The notes under the pieces were generated by a model. The model worked only from the letters and a program-made list of their open reading frames with translations. It searched no databases and was not told the origin of the DNA. From contig VFYV01000009.1 of assembly GCA_016871395.1 (NCBI GenBank), forward strand, positions 7,457 to 71,456: a DNA stretch of 64,000 bases, read 5' to 3'. The translations under genes and the position numbers were made by a program. Positions 41,947 to 48,985 of this stretch are shown one piece after another (the first letter of the stretch is position 1; each line of letters starts with the position of its first letter). The DNA comes from Actinomycetota bacterium (lineage in GTDB: Bacteria > Actinomycetota > Acidimicrobiia > Acidimicrobiales > Ilumatobacteraceae).

Positions 41947-44900
41947 GTGTCCGAAACGCTGATACCCCCGTCTGACGCACAGCCCGACTTCGGGGCCAAC
42001 TCCTGGCTCGTGGAGGAGATGTACGAGCAATTCCGCCTCGATCCGACCTCGGTCGGGGAGTCCTGGCGCGAGTTCTTCTCGGACTACAAGTCCCTGACCT
42101 CCGGAGCCGGCCAGGGGGTCACGACTCCCGGGAGAACGTCGTCCGAGGTGGCGAGCGTCAGCACGTCCGCCCCGAGACCGGCGGCCCCGGTCGTCACGAA
42201 CGACGCGGGCGAGCCGATCAAGGGAGCCGGCGTGGCCATCGTGGCCAACATGGAACGCAGCCTCACCGTTCCGACCGCCACCAGTTTCCGCAACATCCCG
42301 GCCAAGTTGCTCGAGGTCAACCGCTCGGTCATCAACGGTTATCGCAGTCGCACCGGACAGAGCAAGGTCAGTTTCACCCACCTCATTGCCTACGCGATCG
42401 TGCGCGCGATCGCCGACGCGGTGCCACAAATGAACAACGCCTACCTCGAGGGTCCTGATGGAAAGCCTCGTATCGTCCGCAACGCGCACGTCAGCATGGG
42501 TCTCGCGGTCGACGTGGTCAAGTCCGACGCGAGCCGCCATCTCGTGGTGCCCGTCTTGCGCGATGCCGACACGATCTCCTTCGCCGACTTCGTCGTGGCC
42601 TACGAGGATCTGGTGCGCAAGGTCAAGCAGAACAAACTCCAAGTCTCCGATTTTCAGGGTGCGACCATCAGCGTCACGAACCCGGGCACCCTCGGCACTG
42701 TGCAGAGTGTGCCGCGCTTGATGCCCGGGCAGGGCGTCATCGTCGGCGTTGGTTCCATCGATTACCCGGCCGAATTCCAAGGTGCCGACGAGCGTGCTCT
42801 GGCCACCCTCGGAGTCTCCAAGGTCATCACCGTCACGTCCACGTACGACCACCGCATCATTCAGGGCGCCGAAAGCGGGTTGTTCCTGCGGCGGGTGCAC
42901 GAGTTGCTGTTGGGTGAGCACGGTTTTTACGAGTCGGTCTTCCGCAGCCTCGGGGTGCCCTACGAGGCCGTGAAGTGGCGCATCGACATCAATCCGATGG
43001 ACAGCGAAGAGGCCATGCTGCACAAGCAGATGCAGGTCGCCACCCTCATCCGCGTTCACCGCGTGCGCGGACACCTGATCGCCGACCTCGACCCGTTGCG
43101 ATGGAAGGAGCCCAAGCTCCCGGTCGAACTCGATCCCCTCACGTACGGGCTCTCGATCTGGGACCTCGACCGCGAATTTCTCACCGGAGGGGTCGCCGGG
43201 ACCACCAAGATGCCGCTCGGCGATTTGCTCGGAGTGTTGCGCGACGCCTACTGCCGCACCATCGGTGTGGAATACATGCACATTCAGGACACCGACGAAC
43301 AGCGTTGGATCCAGTCGCACTTCGAGGGCGTGTCCTTCCAGTTGTCCAAGGAGGAGAAGCACCGCGTGCTGGAGCGATTGAACGCCGCCGAGGCCTTCGA
43401 GAAGTTCCTCGCCACCAAGTATGTGGGCACCAAGCGTTTCGGGTTGGAGGGCGCCGAGAGCGCCGTCCCGATCATGGACGAGATTCTCTCGCGCGCGGCG
43501 AACGCTGGTCTCGATTCCACGGTGATCGGGATGGCTCACCGCGGACGCCTGAACATCTTGGCCAACGTGATGGGAAAGAGCCTCGAGCACATCTTCAAGG
43601 AGTTCGAGGGCTACGTCGACCCGTCGGCGGTGCAGGGTTCCGGTGACGTGAAGTATCACCTCGCGGCCTCCGGTCACCATCACAGCCCGGCGGGTAACGA
43701 GATCAAGATCGAACTCGCCGCCAACCCCAGCCACCTCGAAACCGTGGATCCGCTGGTGTTGGGCATGGTGCGCGCGCGCCAGGATCAAATCGATCCGCCG
43801 GGTTCCTTCCCCGCCTTGCCCATCCTCATCCACGGCGACGCCGCGTTCGCCGGTCAGGGCGTGGTCGCCGAGTGTCTCGGTATGAGCGACATCAACGGCT
43901 ATCGCGTCGGCGGAACCATCCACCTCATCATCAACAACCAGATCGGCTTCACCACGTCACCGCTGTTTGCGCGGTCGTCGTTGTACTGCAGCGACGTGGC
44001 CAAGATGGTCCAAGCCCCGATCTTCCACGTGAACGGTGACGATCCCGAGGCCTGTGTGCGCGTGGCCCGATTGGCTTGGGAGTACCGCCAGCGTTTTCAC
44101 AAGGACGTCGTCATCGACATGGTGTGCTACCGCCGCCACGGTCACAATGAAGGTGACGATCCCAGTTACACGCAACCTCTCATGTACAAGGCCATCGCCG
44201 ACAAGCGCAGCGTGCGAAAGTTGTACGTCGAGACTCTGGTGGGTCGTGGAGATATCACGCTCGAGGAAGCCGAACAGGCCCTCGACGACTTCCGACGTAA
44301 GTTTCAGGTGGCCCTGGACGAGACTCGTGCTCACGCGCCGGCGCCCTCCAAAGTGGCCAAGCCGCCCCGACCGGTCGGCGTGTTGCCCCACGTGAACACC
44401 GGTGTCGAGCGAGCGATCCTGGATCGCGTCTTTTCACAACTCACCAACTACCCGGCCGACTTCACCCCCCATCCCAAGTTGGTCAAGCAGTTCGAAATGC
44501 GCGCCAAGGCCTACAAAGAGCAAGGTGACATCGAATGGGCCACCGGAGAGGCGTTGGCCTTCGGGTCATTGGTGCTCGAGGGCTGCCCCGTTCGCTTGGC
44601 TGGCGAGGATTCGCGCCGAGGAACGTTCAGTCAACGCCACGCCGTTCTCATCGACAACATCAACGAGCGCGTCTGGATCCCTCTGTCGGAGTTGCCGGGT
44701 GCCGAGAAGTTCTGGGTGTACGACTCGTTGCTGTCCGAGTACGCCGCGCTCGGATTCGAGTACGGGTACGCCCACGCCAACCCGGAGGCTCTCGTACTGT
44801 GGGAGGCGCAGTTCGGTGATTTCGTCAACGGCGCTCAGATCATCATCGACCAGTACATCGTGGCCGCCGAGGACAAGTGGAATCAGCACAACGCACTCGT

Positions 44901-45558
44901 CATGCTCTTGCCGCACGGCTACGAGGGCCAAGGCCCCGAACACAGTTCGGCTCGCATCGAAAGATTCCTCACTCTGTGCGCCGAGGACAACATTCAAGTC
45001 GTGAACGCCACCACGGCCGCGCAGTATTTCCACGTTCTCCGTCGCCAGATGCACCGTGAGGTGCGCAAGCCGTTGGTGATTTTCACACCCAAGGCACCTC
45101 TTCGAATGAAAGAGTCGCGCTCGCGCATCAGCGAACTGGAACCTGGGACCTCGTTCCACGAGGTGCTCGACGACCCCGCGATCACCGACCGCGCCGCGGT
45201 GAGGCGCGTGGTTTTTTGTTCGGGCAAGGTGGCGTGGGACGCGATGGCCGAGCGCCACAAGCGCAACGCGCCGCTGGCGGTCGTTCGCGTGGAGCAGTTG
45301 TATCCGTTCCCGATCGAGCAGATGGCCGACATCCTCGCCCGTTACCCCCAAGCTCGCGAAGTGGTGTGGCTGCAGGAGGAGCCGAGCAACATGGGGCCGT
45401 GGCACTTCGTCGAACATCGCCTGTGGCGAATCAAGGACCAGGGTTACGACCTGCGACGCGTGGCGCGCGTGGCCAGTGGTAGCCCGGCCACCGGCTCCAA
45501 GACCGTGCACGATCAGGAGTTGGCCGAGTTGATGGACGAAATCTTTCGAGATCTCTGA
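41947..45558 (+). CDS. kgd: Multifunctional 2-oxoglutarate dehydrogenase/decarboxylase E1 with fused E2-like acyltransferase domain (Kgd/OdhA type)
   Basis: This is a 1203-aa ORF. The N-terminus is FGANSWLVEEMYEQF. An E2-like catalytic segment (TSTYDHRIIQGAESG) is followed by a ThDP-dependent E1 region (GMAHRGRLNILANV, HGDAAFAGQGVV, LLPHGYEGQGPEHSSARIERFL). Confidence 0.92.
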   Translation: MSETLIPPSDAQPDFGANSWLVEEMYEQFRLDPTSVGESWREFFSDYKSLTSGAGQGVTTPGRTSSEVASVSTSAPRPAAPVVTNDAGEPIKGAGVAIVANMERSLTVPTATSFRNIPAKLLEVNRSVINGYRSRTGQSKVSFTHLIAYAIVRAIADAVPQMNNAYLEGPDGKPRIVRNAHVSMGLAVDVVKSDASRHLVVPVLRDADTISFADFVVAYEDLVRKVKQNKLQVSDFQGATISVTNPGTLGTVQSVPRLMPGQGVIVGVGSIDYPAEFQGADERALATLGVSKVITVTSTYDHRIIQGAESGLFLRRVHELLLGEHGFYESVFRSLGVPYEAVKWRIDINPMDSEEAMLHKQMQVATLIRVHRVRGHLIADLDPLRWKEPKLPVELDPLTYGLSIWDLDREFLTGGVAGTTKMPLGDLLGVLRDAYCRTIGVEYMHIQDTDEQRWIQSHFEGVSFQLSKEEKHRVLERLNAAEAFEKFLATKYVGTKRFGLEGAESAVPIMDEILSRAANAGLDSTVIGMAHRGRLNILANVMGKSLEHIFKEFEGYVDPSAVQGSGDVKYHLAASGHHHSPAGNEIKIELAANPSHLETVDPLVLGMVRARQDQIDPPGSFPALPILIHGDAAFAGQGVVAECLGMSDINGYRVGGTIHLIINNQIGFTTSPLFARSSLYCSDVAKMVQAPIFHVNGDDPEACVRVARLAWEYRQRFHKDVVIDMVCYRRHGHNEGDDPSYTQPLMYKAIADKRSVRKLYVETLVGRGDITLEEAEQALDDFRRKFQVALDETRAHAPAPSKVAKPPRPVGVLPHVNTGVERAILDRVFSQLTNYPADFTPHPKLVKQFEMRAKAYKEQGDIEWATGEALAFGSLVLEGCPVRLAGEDSRRGTFSQRHAVLIDNINERVWIPLSELPGAEKFWVYDSLLSEYAALGFEYGYAHANPEALVLWEAQFGDFVNGAQIIIDQYIVAAEDKWNQHNALVMLLPHGYEGQGPEHSSARIERFLTLCAEDNIQVVNATTAAQYFHVLRRQMHREVRKPLVIFTPKAPLRMKESRSRISELEPGTSFHEVLDDPAITDRAAVRRVVFCSGKVAWDAMAERHKRNAPLAVVRVEQLYPFPIEQMADILARYPQAREVVWLQEEPSNMGPWHFVEHRLWRIKDQGYDLRRVARVASGSPATGSKTVHDQELAELMDEIFRDL

Positions 45559-45584
45559 CCATCGGCCCACCGCTTCGATCGCCC

Positions 45585-46244
45585 TCAGCGCAACGTCACA
45601 CCGAGGATCGCCTCCAGATCGTCGATCGCCTGTTCGGACTGCACCACCTTGATGGTGCGCATCCCCATGGCGGCCGCCGGCTTCAGATTGACCCCCAAAT
45701 CGTCGAGGAACACGCACTCGGCAGGCGAGACCGCCAACATTCCGCAGGCGATCTCGTAGAAGCGAGGCTCGGGCTTGCGCACGCCCACCTTCGAGCTCTC
45801 GACGATGACGTCGAAGCGCTCCATGACGACGTCGATCTCGGTCTGACGATCGGAGGCTGGTCGCTCGCCGACGGCGTTCGCGCCCGCCATGTTGTTCGTC
45901 AGGCAGGCGGTCTTGTAACCGGCGGCCTTCACCAGGTCCAGGGCGCGCACCATCTCCGGACGGATCTCGCCGTCCAACATCATCAAGACGTCGGCTCCTC
46001 GAATCGAAAACCCGATTTTCGATGCCTCGGCGGCAAAGGCGCTGTCGAATTCGCGGGCCGAGATGTCGCTGCGCTCGAAACGTGCCCACGCATTGGTGTC
46101 GGGGTCGGTGGCGTTGATGCGTCGGATGGTGTCCCGGGGAACCCCGAGTCGGCCCTCCAACCGATTGAAGGCTTCGAAGGGGCTCGTGAGGATCACCCCG
46201 CCGAAGTCCCAGAGAACGGCCGAAATCTTGGTTGAACCAGTCAC
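45585..46244 (-). CDS. HAD-superfamily hydrolase (subfamily IA, epoxide-hydrolase-N-terminal-like phosphatase)
   Basis: HAD motif I is AVLWDFGGVIL, motif II is LTNN, and motif III/IV is K...FLDDLGVNL. The start is GTG 46244. Confidence 0.8.
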   Translation of the reverse strand: MTGSTKISAVLWDFGGVILTSPFEAFNRLEGRLGVPRDTIRRINATDPDTNAWARFERSDISAREFDSAFAAEASKIGFSIRGADVLMMLDGEIRPEMVRALDLVKAAGYKTACLTNNMAGANAVGERPASDRQTEIDVVMERFDVIVESSKVGVRKPEPRFYEIACGMLAVSPAECVFLDDLGVNLKPAAAMGMRTIKVVQSEQAIDDLEAILGVTLR

Positions 46245-46255
46245 ATTCCGATCGT

Positions 46256-47455
46256 ATGGCTATCACCTTCGGGGAATCCCATTGGTGGTTGACTGGAGAG
46301 GTGGGCAGACATGTCATCGTCGATGGTTCGAACCTCGCCACCGAGGGTCGTTCGAAACCGAGTCTGAAGCAGTTGAACGAAGCGGTGATCGCCTTCATGG
46401 CCGATCATCCCAAGGACGTCATCACGGTCATCGTGGACGCCACCTTTGGTCATCGCATCGACGCCAAGGAGACCAAGGCTTTCGACAAGGCGATCGAGCA
46501 CAACGAGTTGGTGACACCGCCGGCTGGTACCGTCGGCCGAGGTGACGGCTTCGTATTGAGCATCGCTCAGAAGGTCGGCGCATCCATTCTTTCGAACGAC
46601 AGTTACCAGGAGTTCCATGGGCAGTACCCGTGGCTGTTCGACGAGGGTCGCCTGATCGGCGGTAAGCCGGTCCCCAACGTGGGCTGGGTCTTCGTGAATC
46701 GCATCCCGGTGCGGGGGGAAAAGAGTCGCCGTTCCACGCGCGATGCCGACACGGGCCGCAAGAAGGACTCCGCGCCAAAGCCGAGGGTCAGCGCCGAGGC
46801 CATGAAGCCCATGCCGGTGCCCAAGGCTCCGCCCCCGGGTGCCACGTTGCCGGCGAAGAAAACCACCGCGCCATCGACGGGCAAAACCGTGAACGGGGTT
46901 CTCCCGTTCCTGCAATTCGTCGAGAAGCACGGTGTCGGCTCGGTCGTCAACGGGGTCGTCGACAGTTACTCGTCTCATGGCGCCTACGTCATCATCGGCG
47001 AGGTGAAGGGTTATGTTCCGCTCCGTTCGTACAGCAGCCCGCCTCCGCGTTCGGCGCGCGAGGTGATGAAACTGGGAGACACCATCTCTCTCGAGGTGAT
47101 GGAGATCATCCCCGCCCGACGCAGTATCGATTTGAAACCGAGCACGCGAAAGACCCCTCCGGCCAAGGCGATAGTGGTGAAAAAGGCGACAGTGGTGAAA
47201 AAAGCGACAGTGGTGAAAAAGGCGCCCGCCAAGTCGGCGGTGGTGGTGAAGAAGGCGCCGGCGAAAAAGACGGCAGTGGTGGTGAAGAAGGCGCCCGCCA
47301 AGTCGGCGGTCGTGGTGAAGAAGGCACCCGCGAAAAAGACGGCGGTGAAGAAGGTGGCTCCGCCCAGGACCCCGGCGACCAAGAAGATGGTGGCGAAGAA
47401 GAAAACGGCGAAGAGGCCCGCGCCGGCGAAAAAAGTGACCTCGCGTCGCAGGTGA
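46256..47455 (+). CDS. Zc3h12a-like NYN ribonuclease domain + S1 RNA-binding domain + Lys/Ala/Val-rich repeat tail
   Basis: The N-terminus VIVDGSNLA...DVITVIVDATFGHR...ELVTPPAGTVGRGDGFVLSIAQKVGASILSNDSYQEF...WLFDEGRLIGG is colinear with the eukaryotic Zc3h12a/MCPIP1 NYN domain (VVIDGSNVA...SNDTYRDL). The middle GSVVNGVVDSYSSHGAYVIIGEVKGYVPLRS...LGDTISLEVMEI is S1-like. The C-terminal ~100 aa consists of (A/T)VVKKA / PAKK repeats. I chose the ATG at 46256; the TTG at 46232 would overlap the divergent HAD start. Confidence 0.8.
   Translation: MAITFGESHWWLTGEVGRHVIVDGSNLATEGRSKPSLKQLNEAVIAFMADHPKDVITVIVDATFGHRIDAKETKAFDKAIEHNELVTPPAGTVGRGDGFVLSIAQKVGASILSNDSYQEFHGQYPWLFDEGRLIGGKPVPNVGWVFVNRIPVRGEKSRRSTRDADTGRKKDSAPKPRVSAEAMKPMPVPKAPPPGATLPAKKTTAPSTGKTVNGVLPFLQFVEKHGVGSVVNGVVDSYSSHGAYVIIGEVKGYVPLRSYSSPPPRSAREVMKLGDTISLEVMEIIPARRSIDLKPSTRKTPPAKAIVVKKATVVKKATVVKKAPAKSAVVVKKAPAKKTAVVVKKAPAKSAVVVKKAPAKKTAVKKVAPPRTPATKKMVAKKKTAKRPAPAKKVTSRRR
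47168..47353 (+). repeat. In-frame coding tandem repeats (3 x 18 nt, then 69 nt + 63 nt)
   Basis: The 18-nt units are gcgaTagtggtgaaaaag (47168-47185), gcgacagtggtgaaaaaa (47186-47203) and gcgacagtggtgaaaaag (47204-47221). A 69-nt unit at 47222-47290 is repeated at 47291-47353 with a 6-nt deletion and a few substitutions. Together they encode ATVVKK x3 and APAKSAVVVKKAPAKKTAVVVKK x2. Confidence 0.88.
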
Positions 47456-48261
47456 CGCGGCCACCCCTGATCGCCTACGGTTCGGTCGTGCGTCTGGCCA
47501 CCTGGAACGTCAATTCTTTGCGGGCCCGCATGCCCCGGGTGGAAGAGTGGTTGGCCGATGTTCACCCCGATGTCCTGTGCCTGCAGGAGACCAAACTCGC
47601 CGAGGATGCGTTTCCCGACGATTTCTTCGCCGCTCTCGGTTACGAGTCCATCCACCATGGTCAGGGTCAGTGGAATGGCGTGGCCATCGTCAGTCGGGTG
47701 GGTCTCGAGAAGCCGGTGCGAGGGTTCGCCGATGGGCACGACGCCGACCCCGAGGCTCGGTTGGTGACCGCCACGTGTTCGGGCATTCGCGTGAGTTCGG
47801 TGTACGTGCCCAATGGCCGGGAACTCGATCACGACCATTACCGATACAAGTTGGCGTGGATGAAGAGATTGGTGGCCCATCTGGAGGCCAATGAATCGTC
47901 GACCTCCGACGTGATCGTCACCGGAGACTTCAACATCGCGCCCGACGATCGAGACGTTCACGATCCATCGAGGTTCGTCGGAGCCACCCATGTCAGTGAG
48001 CCCGAGCGTCAGGCACTGCGTGATCTCGAACACTGGGGGATGAGCGACGTCTTTCGGCTTCACCATGCCGACGAAAAATTGTTCTCGTGGTGGGACTACC
48101 GAGCCGGAGCGTTCAATCAAGGACACGGAATGCGCATCGATCTGGTGATGGCCACCCGGTCGGTGGCGAAGAAATGTCGATGGATCGCGGTCGATCGTCA
48201 AGCTCGCAAAGGCGAAAAGCCCAGCGATCATGCGCCAGTGGTGGTGGACATAGATGTCTGA
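47452..48261 (+). CDS. xthA: Exodeoxyribonuclease III (AP endonuclease, Xth family)
   Basis: Motifs are LATWNVNSLRARMPRVEEWL...DVLCLQETKL, VTGDFNIAPDDRD and SDHAPVVVDI. The start is GTG 47452 (GTGA overlap with the upstream stop) or GTG 47488 (VRLATWNVNS). Confidence 0.9.
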   Translation: MTRPPLIAYGSVVRLATWNVNSLRARMPRVEEWLADVHPDVLCLQETKLAEDAFPDDFFAALGYESIHHGQGQWNGVAIVSRVGLEKPVRGFADGHDADPEARLVTATCSGIRVSSVYVPNGRELDHDHYRYKLAWMKRLVAHLEANESSTSDVIVTGDFNIAPDDRDVHDPSRFVGATHVSEPERQALRDLEHWGMSDVFRLHHADEKLFSWWDYRAGAFNQGHGMRIDLVMATRSVAKKCRWIAVDRQARKGEKPSDHAPVVVDIDV

Positions 48262-48985
48262 GACCGGTTCTTCGTCCTGGGCCGACCCCGACAAATCGGG
48301 CTCGGGAAATCCGTTGGATCTCCCCAGGCATCGAACCGTGATGTTCGAGGCATCGAATCCTCGACTGCGGTTGGCGAACGCCACTCGCGCACTGTTGCAA
48401 CATTCGGCCACGTCGGTCGCGGACCCGGAGTCCTTCGCGCGCGTCGCCGAGTTGCTCGAGCAAGCGGCGACGCTCTTGGGCGCGGGCCCGCACGGCCGGA
48501 GTTATCACGCCAGTGCGGAGGGTGCCGTCGGAGGGGCGACTCATGGCTTCATCAGCCACAGTCCGGTCACGGGCCCGTTGAACGGCATGGCCGGCCTGGT
48601 CGACATCTCGACGACCGAACACGAGGTGGTCGCCACCATGACCTACGGAAACGCCTACGAGGGTCCACCGGGATGCCTGCACGGTGGATTGATTGCGGCG
48701 ATCTTCGACGAGGTGTTGGGTTTCGCCCAAGCCTTGTCGGGATCGCCGGGCATGACCGGGCGACTCGAGGTGACCTATCGGTCACCCACCCCGCTGCATC
48801 AGCCGTTGCGGGTGGTCGGTCGGTTCGACGGGGTGAATGGTCGCAAGATCATGACGTCGGGAACGATTCACGCTGGTGATCGTCTGTGTGCCGAGGCCAT
48901 CGGTACCTTCATCACCGTGAAAGCGGCGACGTTCGCCGATCTCAATCGTCAGCGTGATCGGGCCGACGAGACACACCCCGACTGA
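48254..48985 (+). CDS. PaaI-family (hotdog-fold) thioesterase
   Basis: CLHGGLIAAIFDEVLGFA is the typical PaaI/4HBT class II motif. There is an 8-nt overlap with xthA. Confidence 0.8.
   Translation: MSETGSSSWADPDKSGSGNPLDLPRHRTVMFEASNPRLRLANATRALLQHSATSVADPESFARVAELLEQAATLLGAGPHGRSYHASAEGAVGGATHGFISHSPVTGPLNGMAGLVDISTTEHEVVATMTYGNAYEGPPGCLHGGLIAAIFDEVLGFAQALSGSPGMTGRLEVTYRSPTPLHQPLRVVGRFDGVNGRKIMTSGTIHAGDRLCAEAIGTFITVKAATFADLNRQRDRADETHPD

Follow-up and report, generated by a model that had tools for sequence, protein, structure and literature searches.

Two published accounts name characterised enzymes of the Zc3h12a/PRORP group, and each of these enzymes combines an RNA endonuclease with a module that binds RNA (Xu et al., 2012, PMC3413151; Matelska et al., 2017, PMC5499597). 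The module is a CCCH zinc finger in Regnase-1/MCPIP1 (ZC3H12A), a KH domain in KHNYN/N4BP1, which are eukaryotic antiviral or immune cofactors, and a tRNA-measuring pentatricopeptide repeat (PPR) domain in PRORP, which also has a zinc-binding domain and two metal ions. The activity of MCPIP1 needs the four aspartates D141, D225, D226, and D244, of which D226 binds Mg2+ and D225 was crucial in a reporter assay (Xu et al., 2012, PMC3413151). In a survey of the PIN superfamily, 154 bacterial and 23 archaeal RNase_Zc3h12a sequences form an evolutionarily separate group that is listed as "Unknown function in bacteria" (Matelska et al., 2017, PMC5499597). The subject of the present analysis is a bacterial gene of this kind, here called NYN-S1, which lies in a 64,000-nucleotide stretch (the window, whose positions are used throughout) of an Ilumatobacteraceae genome, contig VFYV01000009.1, positions 7,457 to 71,456.

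NYN-S1 is a single open reading frame on the + strand, 46301..47455, that begins with GTG, ends with TGA (47453-47455), and encodes 384 residues arranged as a NYN nuclease domain, a linker, an S1 domain, and a polycationic tail. An earlier note on this DNA had described the NYN and S1 domains from the letters alone, and profile searches placed both RNase_Zc3h12a and S1 above their Pfam cutoffs. With a probability that we put at about 0.6, the protein would be a Mg2+-dependent endoribonuclease acting in ordinary RNA turnover or processing, and this predicted function is the expected one. A literature search found no study of a bacterial protein that joins a Zc3h12a-type NYN domain to S1 and no characterised member, in line with the earlier statement that no characterised bacterial protein of this architecture was known; NYN goes unmentioned in a 2024 survey of proteins with S1 domains. 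The class Acidimicrobiia, to which the gene belongs, includes abundant freshwater lineages such as acIV/Ilumatobacteraceae, and to our knowledge almost nothing has been learned of its RNA metabolism. A deeply conserved, apparently single-copy gene with a eukaryote-like NYN fold is thus a candidate for a lineage-specific enzyme of RNA decay or processing.

The NYN domain and its putative active site

The NYN (PIN-like) domain of Zc3h12a/PRORP type, with a C-terminal beta-hairpin extension, occupies 46310..46717 (+ strand; residues 4-139), as delimited by Pfam, AlphaFold2, Foldseek, and profile alignment. In a translation begun at ATG 46256, a start that is set aside below, Pfam RNase_Zc3h12a (PF11977) matched residues 18-123 with 35.1 bits (cutoff 23); the same domain is precomputed on nearly all homologues, and the only other Pfam matches in the protein were S1 and, below its cutoff, HC2. 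The conserved block extends past the Pfam model into the beta-hairpin (WLFDEGRLIGGKPVPxVGWVF), and identity in the NYN domain is 56-79% across clusters whose remaining parts diverge freely. A family profile run against the sequences of the PDB matched only ZC3H12A/B/C and KHNYN (E = 1.5e-4 to 1e-2) and reproduced the motif alignments to MCPIP1 on which the first proposal of a Zc3h12a-like domain had been built.

An AlphaFold2 model of residues 1-155 reached a mean predicted local distance difference test score (pLDDT) of 86.9 and a predicted template modelling score of 0.80. When the model was searched against the PDB with Foldseek, the best 30 matches were all ZC3H12A/B/C, KHNYN, or PRORP1/2 (E = 1.5e-6 to 2e-4; template modelling score, TM, 0.57-0.67), and they were followed by two mitochondrial RNase P entries and then by noise. 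As modelled, the domain has the PIN-like/NYN fold of the Zc3h12a/PRORP group.

The likeness to Regnase-1/MCPIP1 and to ZC3H12B-D lies in this fold (Foldseek E = 1.5e-6 to 2e-5, TM about 0.65) and, for MCPIP1, in the common DGSN, GD, and SND motifs and the fusion of the nuclease to an RNA-binding module. The differences are considerable: identity to the eukaryotic proteins is only 19-26%, the acidic cluster is altered as described below, S1 takes the place of the CCCH zinc finger, and the protein is bacterial and carries a disordered basic linker and tail. The extended NYN domain of KHNYN/N4BP1 is a top match in both sequence and structure (8wzc, 9s2d), and these proteins share the design of a nuclease joined to a single-strand RNA-binding domain, KH rather than S1. 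Rae1/YacP and LabA-type proteins are bacterial and have NYN-type PIN-like domains, but they belong to other NYN subfamilies (Pfam NYN_YacP and NYN) and lack S1; none of their structures was among the top 50 Foldseek matches of the model. PRORP, assigned to the same structural group (Matelska et al., 2017, PMC5499597), supplied the second-best set of Foldseek matches (E = 9e-6 to 2e-4).

That PRORP1/2 and mitochondrial RNase P come next after the Zc3h12 family among the structural matches could point to a dedicated RNA-processing enzyme, akin to a protein-only RNase P or active in the maturation of rRNA or tRNA rather than in general decay. The very strong conservation of the catalytic domain would suit such a role, as would the gene's standing as what appears to be a single-copy core gene; the 64-kb window holds no paralogue. 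Neither the PPR nor the zinc-binding domain of PRORP is seen in NYN-S1, however, nor is any other tRNA-measuring module, and S1 is a general single-strand binder. Actinomycetota, moreover, generally carry an RNA-based RNase P, and the 64-kb window, in which no RNA genes were found, lends no context of that kind. We consider a dedicated processing enzyme quite improbable.

The profile alignment shows which parts of the MCPIP1 active site are kept. On the + strand, D141 is retained as D8 (46322-46324), N144 as N11, D226, the metal ligand in MCPIP1, as D82 (46544-46546), and S242-N243-D244 as S98-N99-D100 (D100 at 46598-46600), and D248 is conservatively changed to E104 (46610-46612). D225, in contrast, is lost to a glycine (G81) that is invariant in the family, so that three of the four aspartates essential in MCPIP1 are kept; and a family-specific invariant aspartate, D46 (46436-46438), closes strand 2 at a position held by proline in the eukaryotic proteins. 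Among 150 representatives of at most about 50% mutual identity, D46, D82, N99, D100, and E104 are invariant, whereas D8, G9, S10, and N11 occur in at least 90%, the exceptions being sequences truncated at the N-terminus; S98, like N11 and N99, is invariant or nearly so across the family. The retention of the acidic DGSN and SND positions noted earlier thus extends to the whole family, but the glycine at the D225 position had been overlooked, and the site is no straight copy of that of MCPIP1.

In the AlphaFold2 model D46 stands at the C-terminal end of strand 2. PIN-like active sites are found on this side of the sheet, and D46 may therefore replace the lost D225. The same loss can be read otherwise, namely that the NYN domain is catalytically dead and has become an RNA- or protein-binding module of an abundant RNA chaperone or of a nucleoid- or ribosome-associated protein, for which the S1 domain and the tail, with its charge of +36, would provide enough affinity for nucleic acid. 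Precedents exist, in that members of the RNase_Zc3h12a group have anywhere from zero to five active-site residues (Matelska et al., 2017, PMC5499597) and the abstract of a bioRxiv preprint calls Caenorhabditis elegans NYN-1 a pseudonuclease. Yet four acidic residues together with E104, N11, S98, and N99 are kept over a deep family, which is the pattern expected of a working active site, and the glycine that took the place of D225 is itself invariant and is accompanied by the new invariant D46; to judge from these conservation patterns, the two look like a rebuilt site rather than a decayed one. A dead nuclease therefore seems distinctly unlikely to us. If D46 has indeed been gained to offset the loss of D225, the catalytic centre of the Zc3h12a/PRORP group would prove to be flexible.

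S1 domain, basic regions, and family distribution

The S1 domain, an oligonucleotide/oligosaccharide-binding (OB) fold with a preceding helix, lies at 46889..47146 (+ strand; residues 197-282; Pfam, phmmer, and AlphaFold2). Pfam S1 (PF00575) scored 34.7 bits against a cutoff of 22, phmmer matched the domain to chains of ribosomal protein bS1 at E = 3e-10, and its closest relatives are the RNA-binding S1 domains of bS1, Tex, GSP13, Rrp5, and Rrp4. The full-length AlphaFold2 model shows an N-terminal helix and a five-stranded barrel (strands 215-223, 227-232, 235-240, 261-270, and 275-280) at pLDDT 85-90, which agrees with the S1-like OB fold first suggested from the letters.

Between the two domains runs a disordered linker rich in Pro, Lys, and Arg (46718..46888, + strand; residues 140-196) with a net charge of +9, as the earlier description of a Pro/Lys linker had it. 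Model confidence in this region is mostly low: pLDDT stays under 50 in residues 119-164 and 184-189 and is about 50-57 in residues 165-183. The linker contains a conserved motif, VSAEAMKPMPVPKAPPPG (46787..46840, + strand; residues 163-180), with the consensus SxEAxxPMPVPxxPPPG; in an alignment of 36 homologues S164, A167, P170, M171, P172, P174, P178, and P179 are invariant and G180 is present in at least 90%, and a strict P[MLIV]P[VILTA]PxxxPP-like pattern recurs in 36 of the 150 distant representatives. This proline-rich motif is perhaps a docking site for a partner protein.

The polycationic, low-complexity tail comprises the last 102 residues (283-384; 47147..47452, + strand), as delimited by composition and pLDDT. 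It consists of 29% K, 22% A, 19% V, and 11% P, has a net charge of +36, and is predicted to be disordered, with pLDDT below 50 over most of residues 289-384. Tandem Repeats Finder detected tandem DNA repeats over much of its coding sequence (47165..47347, + strand; 18 bp x 3.3, 33 bp x 4, and 69 bp x 2); relative to a strain whose Kgd protein is 99% identical, the tail differs by insertions and deletions of whole repeat units (+6 and -12 amino acids), and its length therefore varies between close strains. The tail had been likened to those of HupB/Hlp and eukaryotic H1, and the comparison, which may be extended to chlamydial Hc2, stands as regards a composition rich in K, A, and P with PAKK-type repeats and high positive charge. 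It does not stand as an assignment to a family: HC2 (Pfam PF07382) scored 19.3 bits against a cutoff of 40, and of the two NCBIfam models tested (NF038053 and NF038052), hist_H1_lk_Burk scored 25.1 against 80 and histone_lik_HC2 scored 11 against 135, so that the histone likeness is one of composition only. The NYN-S1 tail differs from the histone-like tails in being unusually rich in valine, in being encoded by recent tandem DNA repeats of variable number, and in being attached to a nuclease and not to a DNA-bending fold.

The family was surveyed by searching the NYN part alone against 1.84 billion proteins and examining the architecture of the best 150 representatives. The search returned 865 cluster representatives at E <= 1e-3, of which 300 were at E <= 1e-30. 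NYN and S1 occur together in 119 of the 150, while those without S1 are mostly short sequences and probably fragments; most representatives have a tail of 100-430 amino acids with 15-38% K+R and 30-50% A+P. A large family has the order NYN, linker, S1, basic tail as its usual architecture, and the domain combination that had been described for the single protein is thus correct and conserved throughout. A variant clade of high-GC Acidimicrobiales (P0262, P0227, P0243; L085, L087) has a linker of 250-450 amino acids rich in A, P, K, and R, which leads from the NYN domain to a diverged S1-like domain at the extreme C-terminus, without a tail; this S1-like domain is missed by Pfam S1 at E <= 0.001. 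Short proteins of 231-266 residues that consist of NYN only (L082, L083) were considered as a separate form and rejected as frameshift-split genes, their contigs being of 200-650 kb from a long-read metagenome with many fragmented gene calls around them. A representative that combines an AMP-binding domain with NYN (P0266) and others with N-terminal extensions look like fusions of gene calls.

Homologues with taxonomically specific names are nearly all from Ilumatobacteraceae, Ilumatobacter, Acidimicrobiaceae, Acidimicrobiales, or Acidimicrobiia; many others are labelled just Actinomycetota, Actinomycetes, or Actinobacteria, and a few are labelled Acidobacteria or Bifidobacterium breve, which we take to be mislabelled metagenome-assembled genomes. 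By specific names, and setting those few labels aside, the family has so far been found only in Acidimicrobiia. The assemblies in question include freshwater metagenome-assembled genomes that carry the NYN-S1 gene block (L008, L011, L013, L016, and others) under the names "Bifidobacterium breve" or "uncultured Bifidobacterium sp.", labels that look mistaken.

In the databases the homologues are called "hypothetical", "S1 RNA-binding domain-containing", or "NYN domain-containing", and no NCBIfam model covers the family; JGI, however, already labels the combination "Zc3h12a-like Ribonuclease NYN domain/S1 RNA binding domain". The architecture is therefore less novel than had been implied. What is new here is that, throughout one bacterial class, a NYN nuclease is joined to a different RNA-binding partner and to a polycationic tail and has an apparently rebuilt acidic cluster. 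For now NYN-S1 is a good experimental target and not a new kind of system.

If the protein is an endoribonuclease as proposed, its parts could work together as follows. The NYN domain would cut RNA by means of an acidic cluster of D8, D46, D82, and D100, with E104, in which D82 would hold the metal ion as D226 does in MCPIP1 and D46 would fill the position vacated by D225. The S1 domain would hold single-stranded RNA, as the CCCH finger, KH, or PPR modules do in the eukaryotic relatives. The disordered linker and the tail would strengthen binding to nucleic acids in general and might gather the enzyme on RNA, on ribosomes, or at the nucleoid. RNase E/G offers a partial parallel, as an endonuclease with an S1 domain and long basic disordered RNA-binding regions, which in RNase E organise decay. 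The parallel is an analogy only: the catalytic folds are unrelated (DNase I-like/RNase H-like in RNase E/G, NYN here), and the S1 domain of RNase E/G is embedded in the catalytic half.

Genomic neighbourhood and alternative functions

The gene order around NYN-S1 is kgd, a divergent HAD hydrolase gene, NYN-S1, an exodeoxyribonuclease III (ExoIII)-like gene, a 4HBT thioesterase gene, and a convergent UvrD/HRDC gene, and it is kept in 54-74 of about 79 loci. The 2-oxoglutarate dehydrogenase gene upstream (41947-45558, + strand) is of the Kgd/OdhA type and encodes 1203 amino acids with E1 and acyltransferase-like domains fused; kgd keeps its place beside NYN-S1 even in distant relatives, and at locus L084 the two are directly adjacent. 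The HAD gene occupies 45585-46244 (- strand; Pfam Hydrolase, 54.5 bits). In distant Acidimicrobiales the block consists of kgd, an M20 peptidase gene, NYN-S1, a FabA-like hotdog gene, the ExoIII-like gene, and UvrD, and in two distant loci insertions directly follow NYN-S1.

The ExoIII-like gene (xthA; 47452..48261, + strand; Exo_endo_phos, Pfam 111.9 bits) is adjacent to NYN-S1 in 69 loci. Its ATWNVNS motif was located in 68 loci and follows the NYN-S1 stop codon by 2-63 nucleotides in all but one of them, where the distance exceeds 80 nucleotides; given this short distance on the same strand, co-transcription of the two genes is likely. As listed, the ExoIII-like gene starts at a GTG that shares bases with the NYN-S1 stop (GTGA), but relatives have stop codons within the stretch 47452-47490 (L010, L037, L047, L064), and translation probably begins at a GTG near 47485-47488 (MRLATWNVNS), which would leave a gap of about 30 nucleotides.

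This neighbourhood is the chief ground for a different reading, in which NYN-S1 would be a DNA-repair or RNA:DNA-hybrid nuclease working alongside the ExoIII-like enzyme and the UvrD/HRDC helicase, its PIN-like domain cutting flaps, R-loops, or embedded ribonucleotides and its S1 domain and tail binding single-stranded or duplex DNA. Besides the closeness of the ExoIII-like gene in nearly all loci, a UvrD/HRDC gene lies near NYN-S1 in 61 loci, the NYN-S1, hotdog-fold, and ExoIII-like genes stay together in distant Acidimicrobiales, and the PIN-like superfamily includes the FEN-type DNA nucleases (PMC5499597). Equally well conserved in the block, however, are kgd, the HAD or M20 peptidase gene, and the thioesterase gene, and since these unrelated metabolic genes have no link to repair, the synteny appears to reflect mainly shared ancestry; direct adjacency to the ExoIII-like gene is lost in the two distant loci with insertions. 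The best structural matches are all RNases, FEN1 reaching only E = 0.08 and TM 0.31 in Foldseek, and the closest relatives of the S1 domain bind RNA. The ExoIII link is a weak functional hint, and a repair nuclease appears unlikely.

A toxin or anti-phage defence nuclease is very improbable and close to refuted. PIN-like domains are common as the toxins of toxin-antitoxin systems (PMC5499597), but NYN-S1 has no small partner gene, PADLOC and PHROGs gave no matches for it, and no relatives were found on the phages, plasmids, or IMG/VR viral contigs searched, so that an origin in defence or mobile elements was rejected. The same housekeeping neighbourhood recurs in about 80 genomes, and the GC content of the gene (0.618) is like that of the rest of the window (0.639); NYN-S1 is a chromosomal gene in a vertically inherited block.

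Several points nevertheless weigh against an endoribonuclease of ordinary RNA turnover or processing. S1 domains and Lys-rich tails also bind single- and double-stranded DNA, and the gene adjoins an ExoIII-like gene with a UvrD-like helicase gene nearby. The residue equivalent to D225 is an invariant glycine, and the suggested place of D46 in the active site draws solely on the topology of strand 2. The results from sequence, structure, and context contain no pointer to a particular RNA substrate, and the superfamily has room for DNA flap nucleases of the FEN type (PMC5499597).

Start codon and upstream element

Coding on the + strand is evident from the GC content by codon position (0.59 at position 1, 0.47 at position 2, and 0.80 at position 3) and from differences between relatives and the window that fall mainly at third positions (e.g., 5/4/40 per position), which together identify the + frame as the coding frame; a 407-amino-acid mirror open reading frame on the minus strand was rejected as an artefact of high GC. 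The earlier note had placed the start at ATG 46256, 11 nucleotides from the start of the divergent HAD gene. This assignment is refuted. The ATG position reads AGG in the six closest relatives, and the 45 nucleotides from 46256 to 46300 are 67-78% identical to those of relatives with changes spread evenly across codon positions. Homologues begin M-x-(R/K)-H-V-V-V-D-G-S-N, 3-8 residues ahead of the DGSN motif, and the alignments of the 150 distant representatives begin at residue 17-20 of the ATG-46256 translation. From the non-conserved ATG, the non-coding pattern of change, and the N-termini of homologues it follows that the true start, as read from these comparisons, is GTG 46301, 45 nucleotides past ATG 46256, and the gap between the HAD and NYN-S1 genes widens to 56 nucleotides. 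The argument for a leaderless mRNA that had been built on the 11-nucleotide gap fails with the start codon on which it depended.

A conserved element, TGGTTGACT (46286..46294, + strand), lies 6 nucleotides ahead of GTG 46301. The 9-mer, with the family consensus TG[G/C]TT[G/T/C]ACT, stands ahead of the start of NYN-S1 in 53 distinct related loci, generally by 6-11 nucleotides: the spacer is 6 nucleotides in 12 loci, 7 in 15, and 8-11 in 25, and in one further locus 3 nucleotides separate the element from a TTG. These loci include distant Acidimicrobiales, among them the most distant loci compared, and two without a divergent upstream gene. The hexamer TTGACT occurs at four sites in the window, and only the one at NYN-S1 precedes a long open reading frame; by this criterion the TGnTTGACT element is specific to the NYN-S1 gene, and a genome-wide promoter or ribosome-binding signal was rejected. 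The frequency of GTGGTTGACT with one mismatch was no higher than in shuffled sequences.

Other accounts of the element were likewise set aside. The TTG at 46289 within it is unsuited as a start codon, being in frame only where the spacer is 6 or 9 nucleotides (23 of the 53 loci), and the element is not a Shine-Dalgarno sequence, since the GGTGG within it is not conserved. The idea that a conserved RNA hairpin displays the element was rejected because the mean enclosing stem, 5.41 bp, compares with 5.63 +/- 0.14 for shuffled flanks, and Rfam gave no match for the region. No Shine-Dalgarno sequence is conserved among the NYN-S1 relatives, the sole GGAG near GTG 46301 ending 2 nucleotides ahead of the start codon, and a sigma-70 consensus scan of 45400-48400 found no promoter.

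The element lies where the -10 box of a leaderless or near-leaderless mRNA would be expected and has the TGn of an extended -10, but its hexamer lacks the A at position 2. A leaderless NYN-S1 mRNA is thus possible after all, by the argument of this placement rather than of the 11-nucleotide gap; an operator or a site of control at the RNA level is equally possible. TGnTTGACT could serve as a -10 box of unusual form, as an operator, or as an RNA site of autoregulation, and a conserved element at the start codon could be of interest as an unusual promoter or regulatory site.

The most far-reaching proposal joins the element to the enzyme: NYN-S1 would be the main endonuclease of RNA decay or processing in Acidimicrobiia, built on a Regnase/PRORP-type fold and not on that of RNase E, Y, or J, with the basic disordered regions and the PMPVPxxPPPG motif as a scaffold and with self-control through TGnTTGACT. 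We think it unlikely that all of this holds. Of the bacterial proteins seen in this analysis, NYN-S1 stands closest to the eukaryotic Zc3h12a nucleases, and the proposal, if true, could bear on the origin of the eukaryotic family.

The divergent HAD gene has a start region of its own. A TACGAT box resembling a -10 element (46251-46256, - strand) lies exactly 6 nucleotides ahead of its GTG start; the closer loci, of Ilumatobacteraceae type, keep the corresponding "gatcgta" at a constant spacing from the HAD start, and ATG 46256 falls inside the box. From this arrangement it is the HAD gene, and not NYN-S1, that looks classically leaderless.

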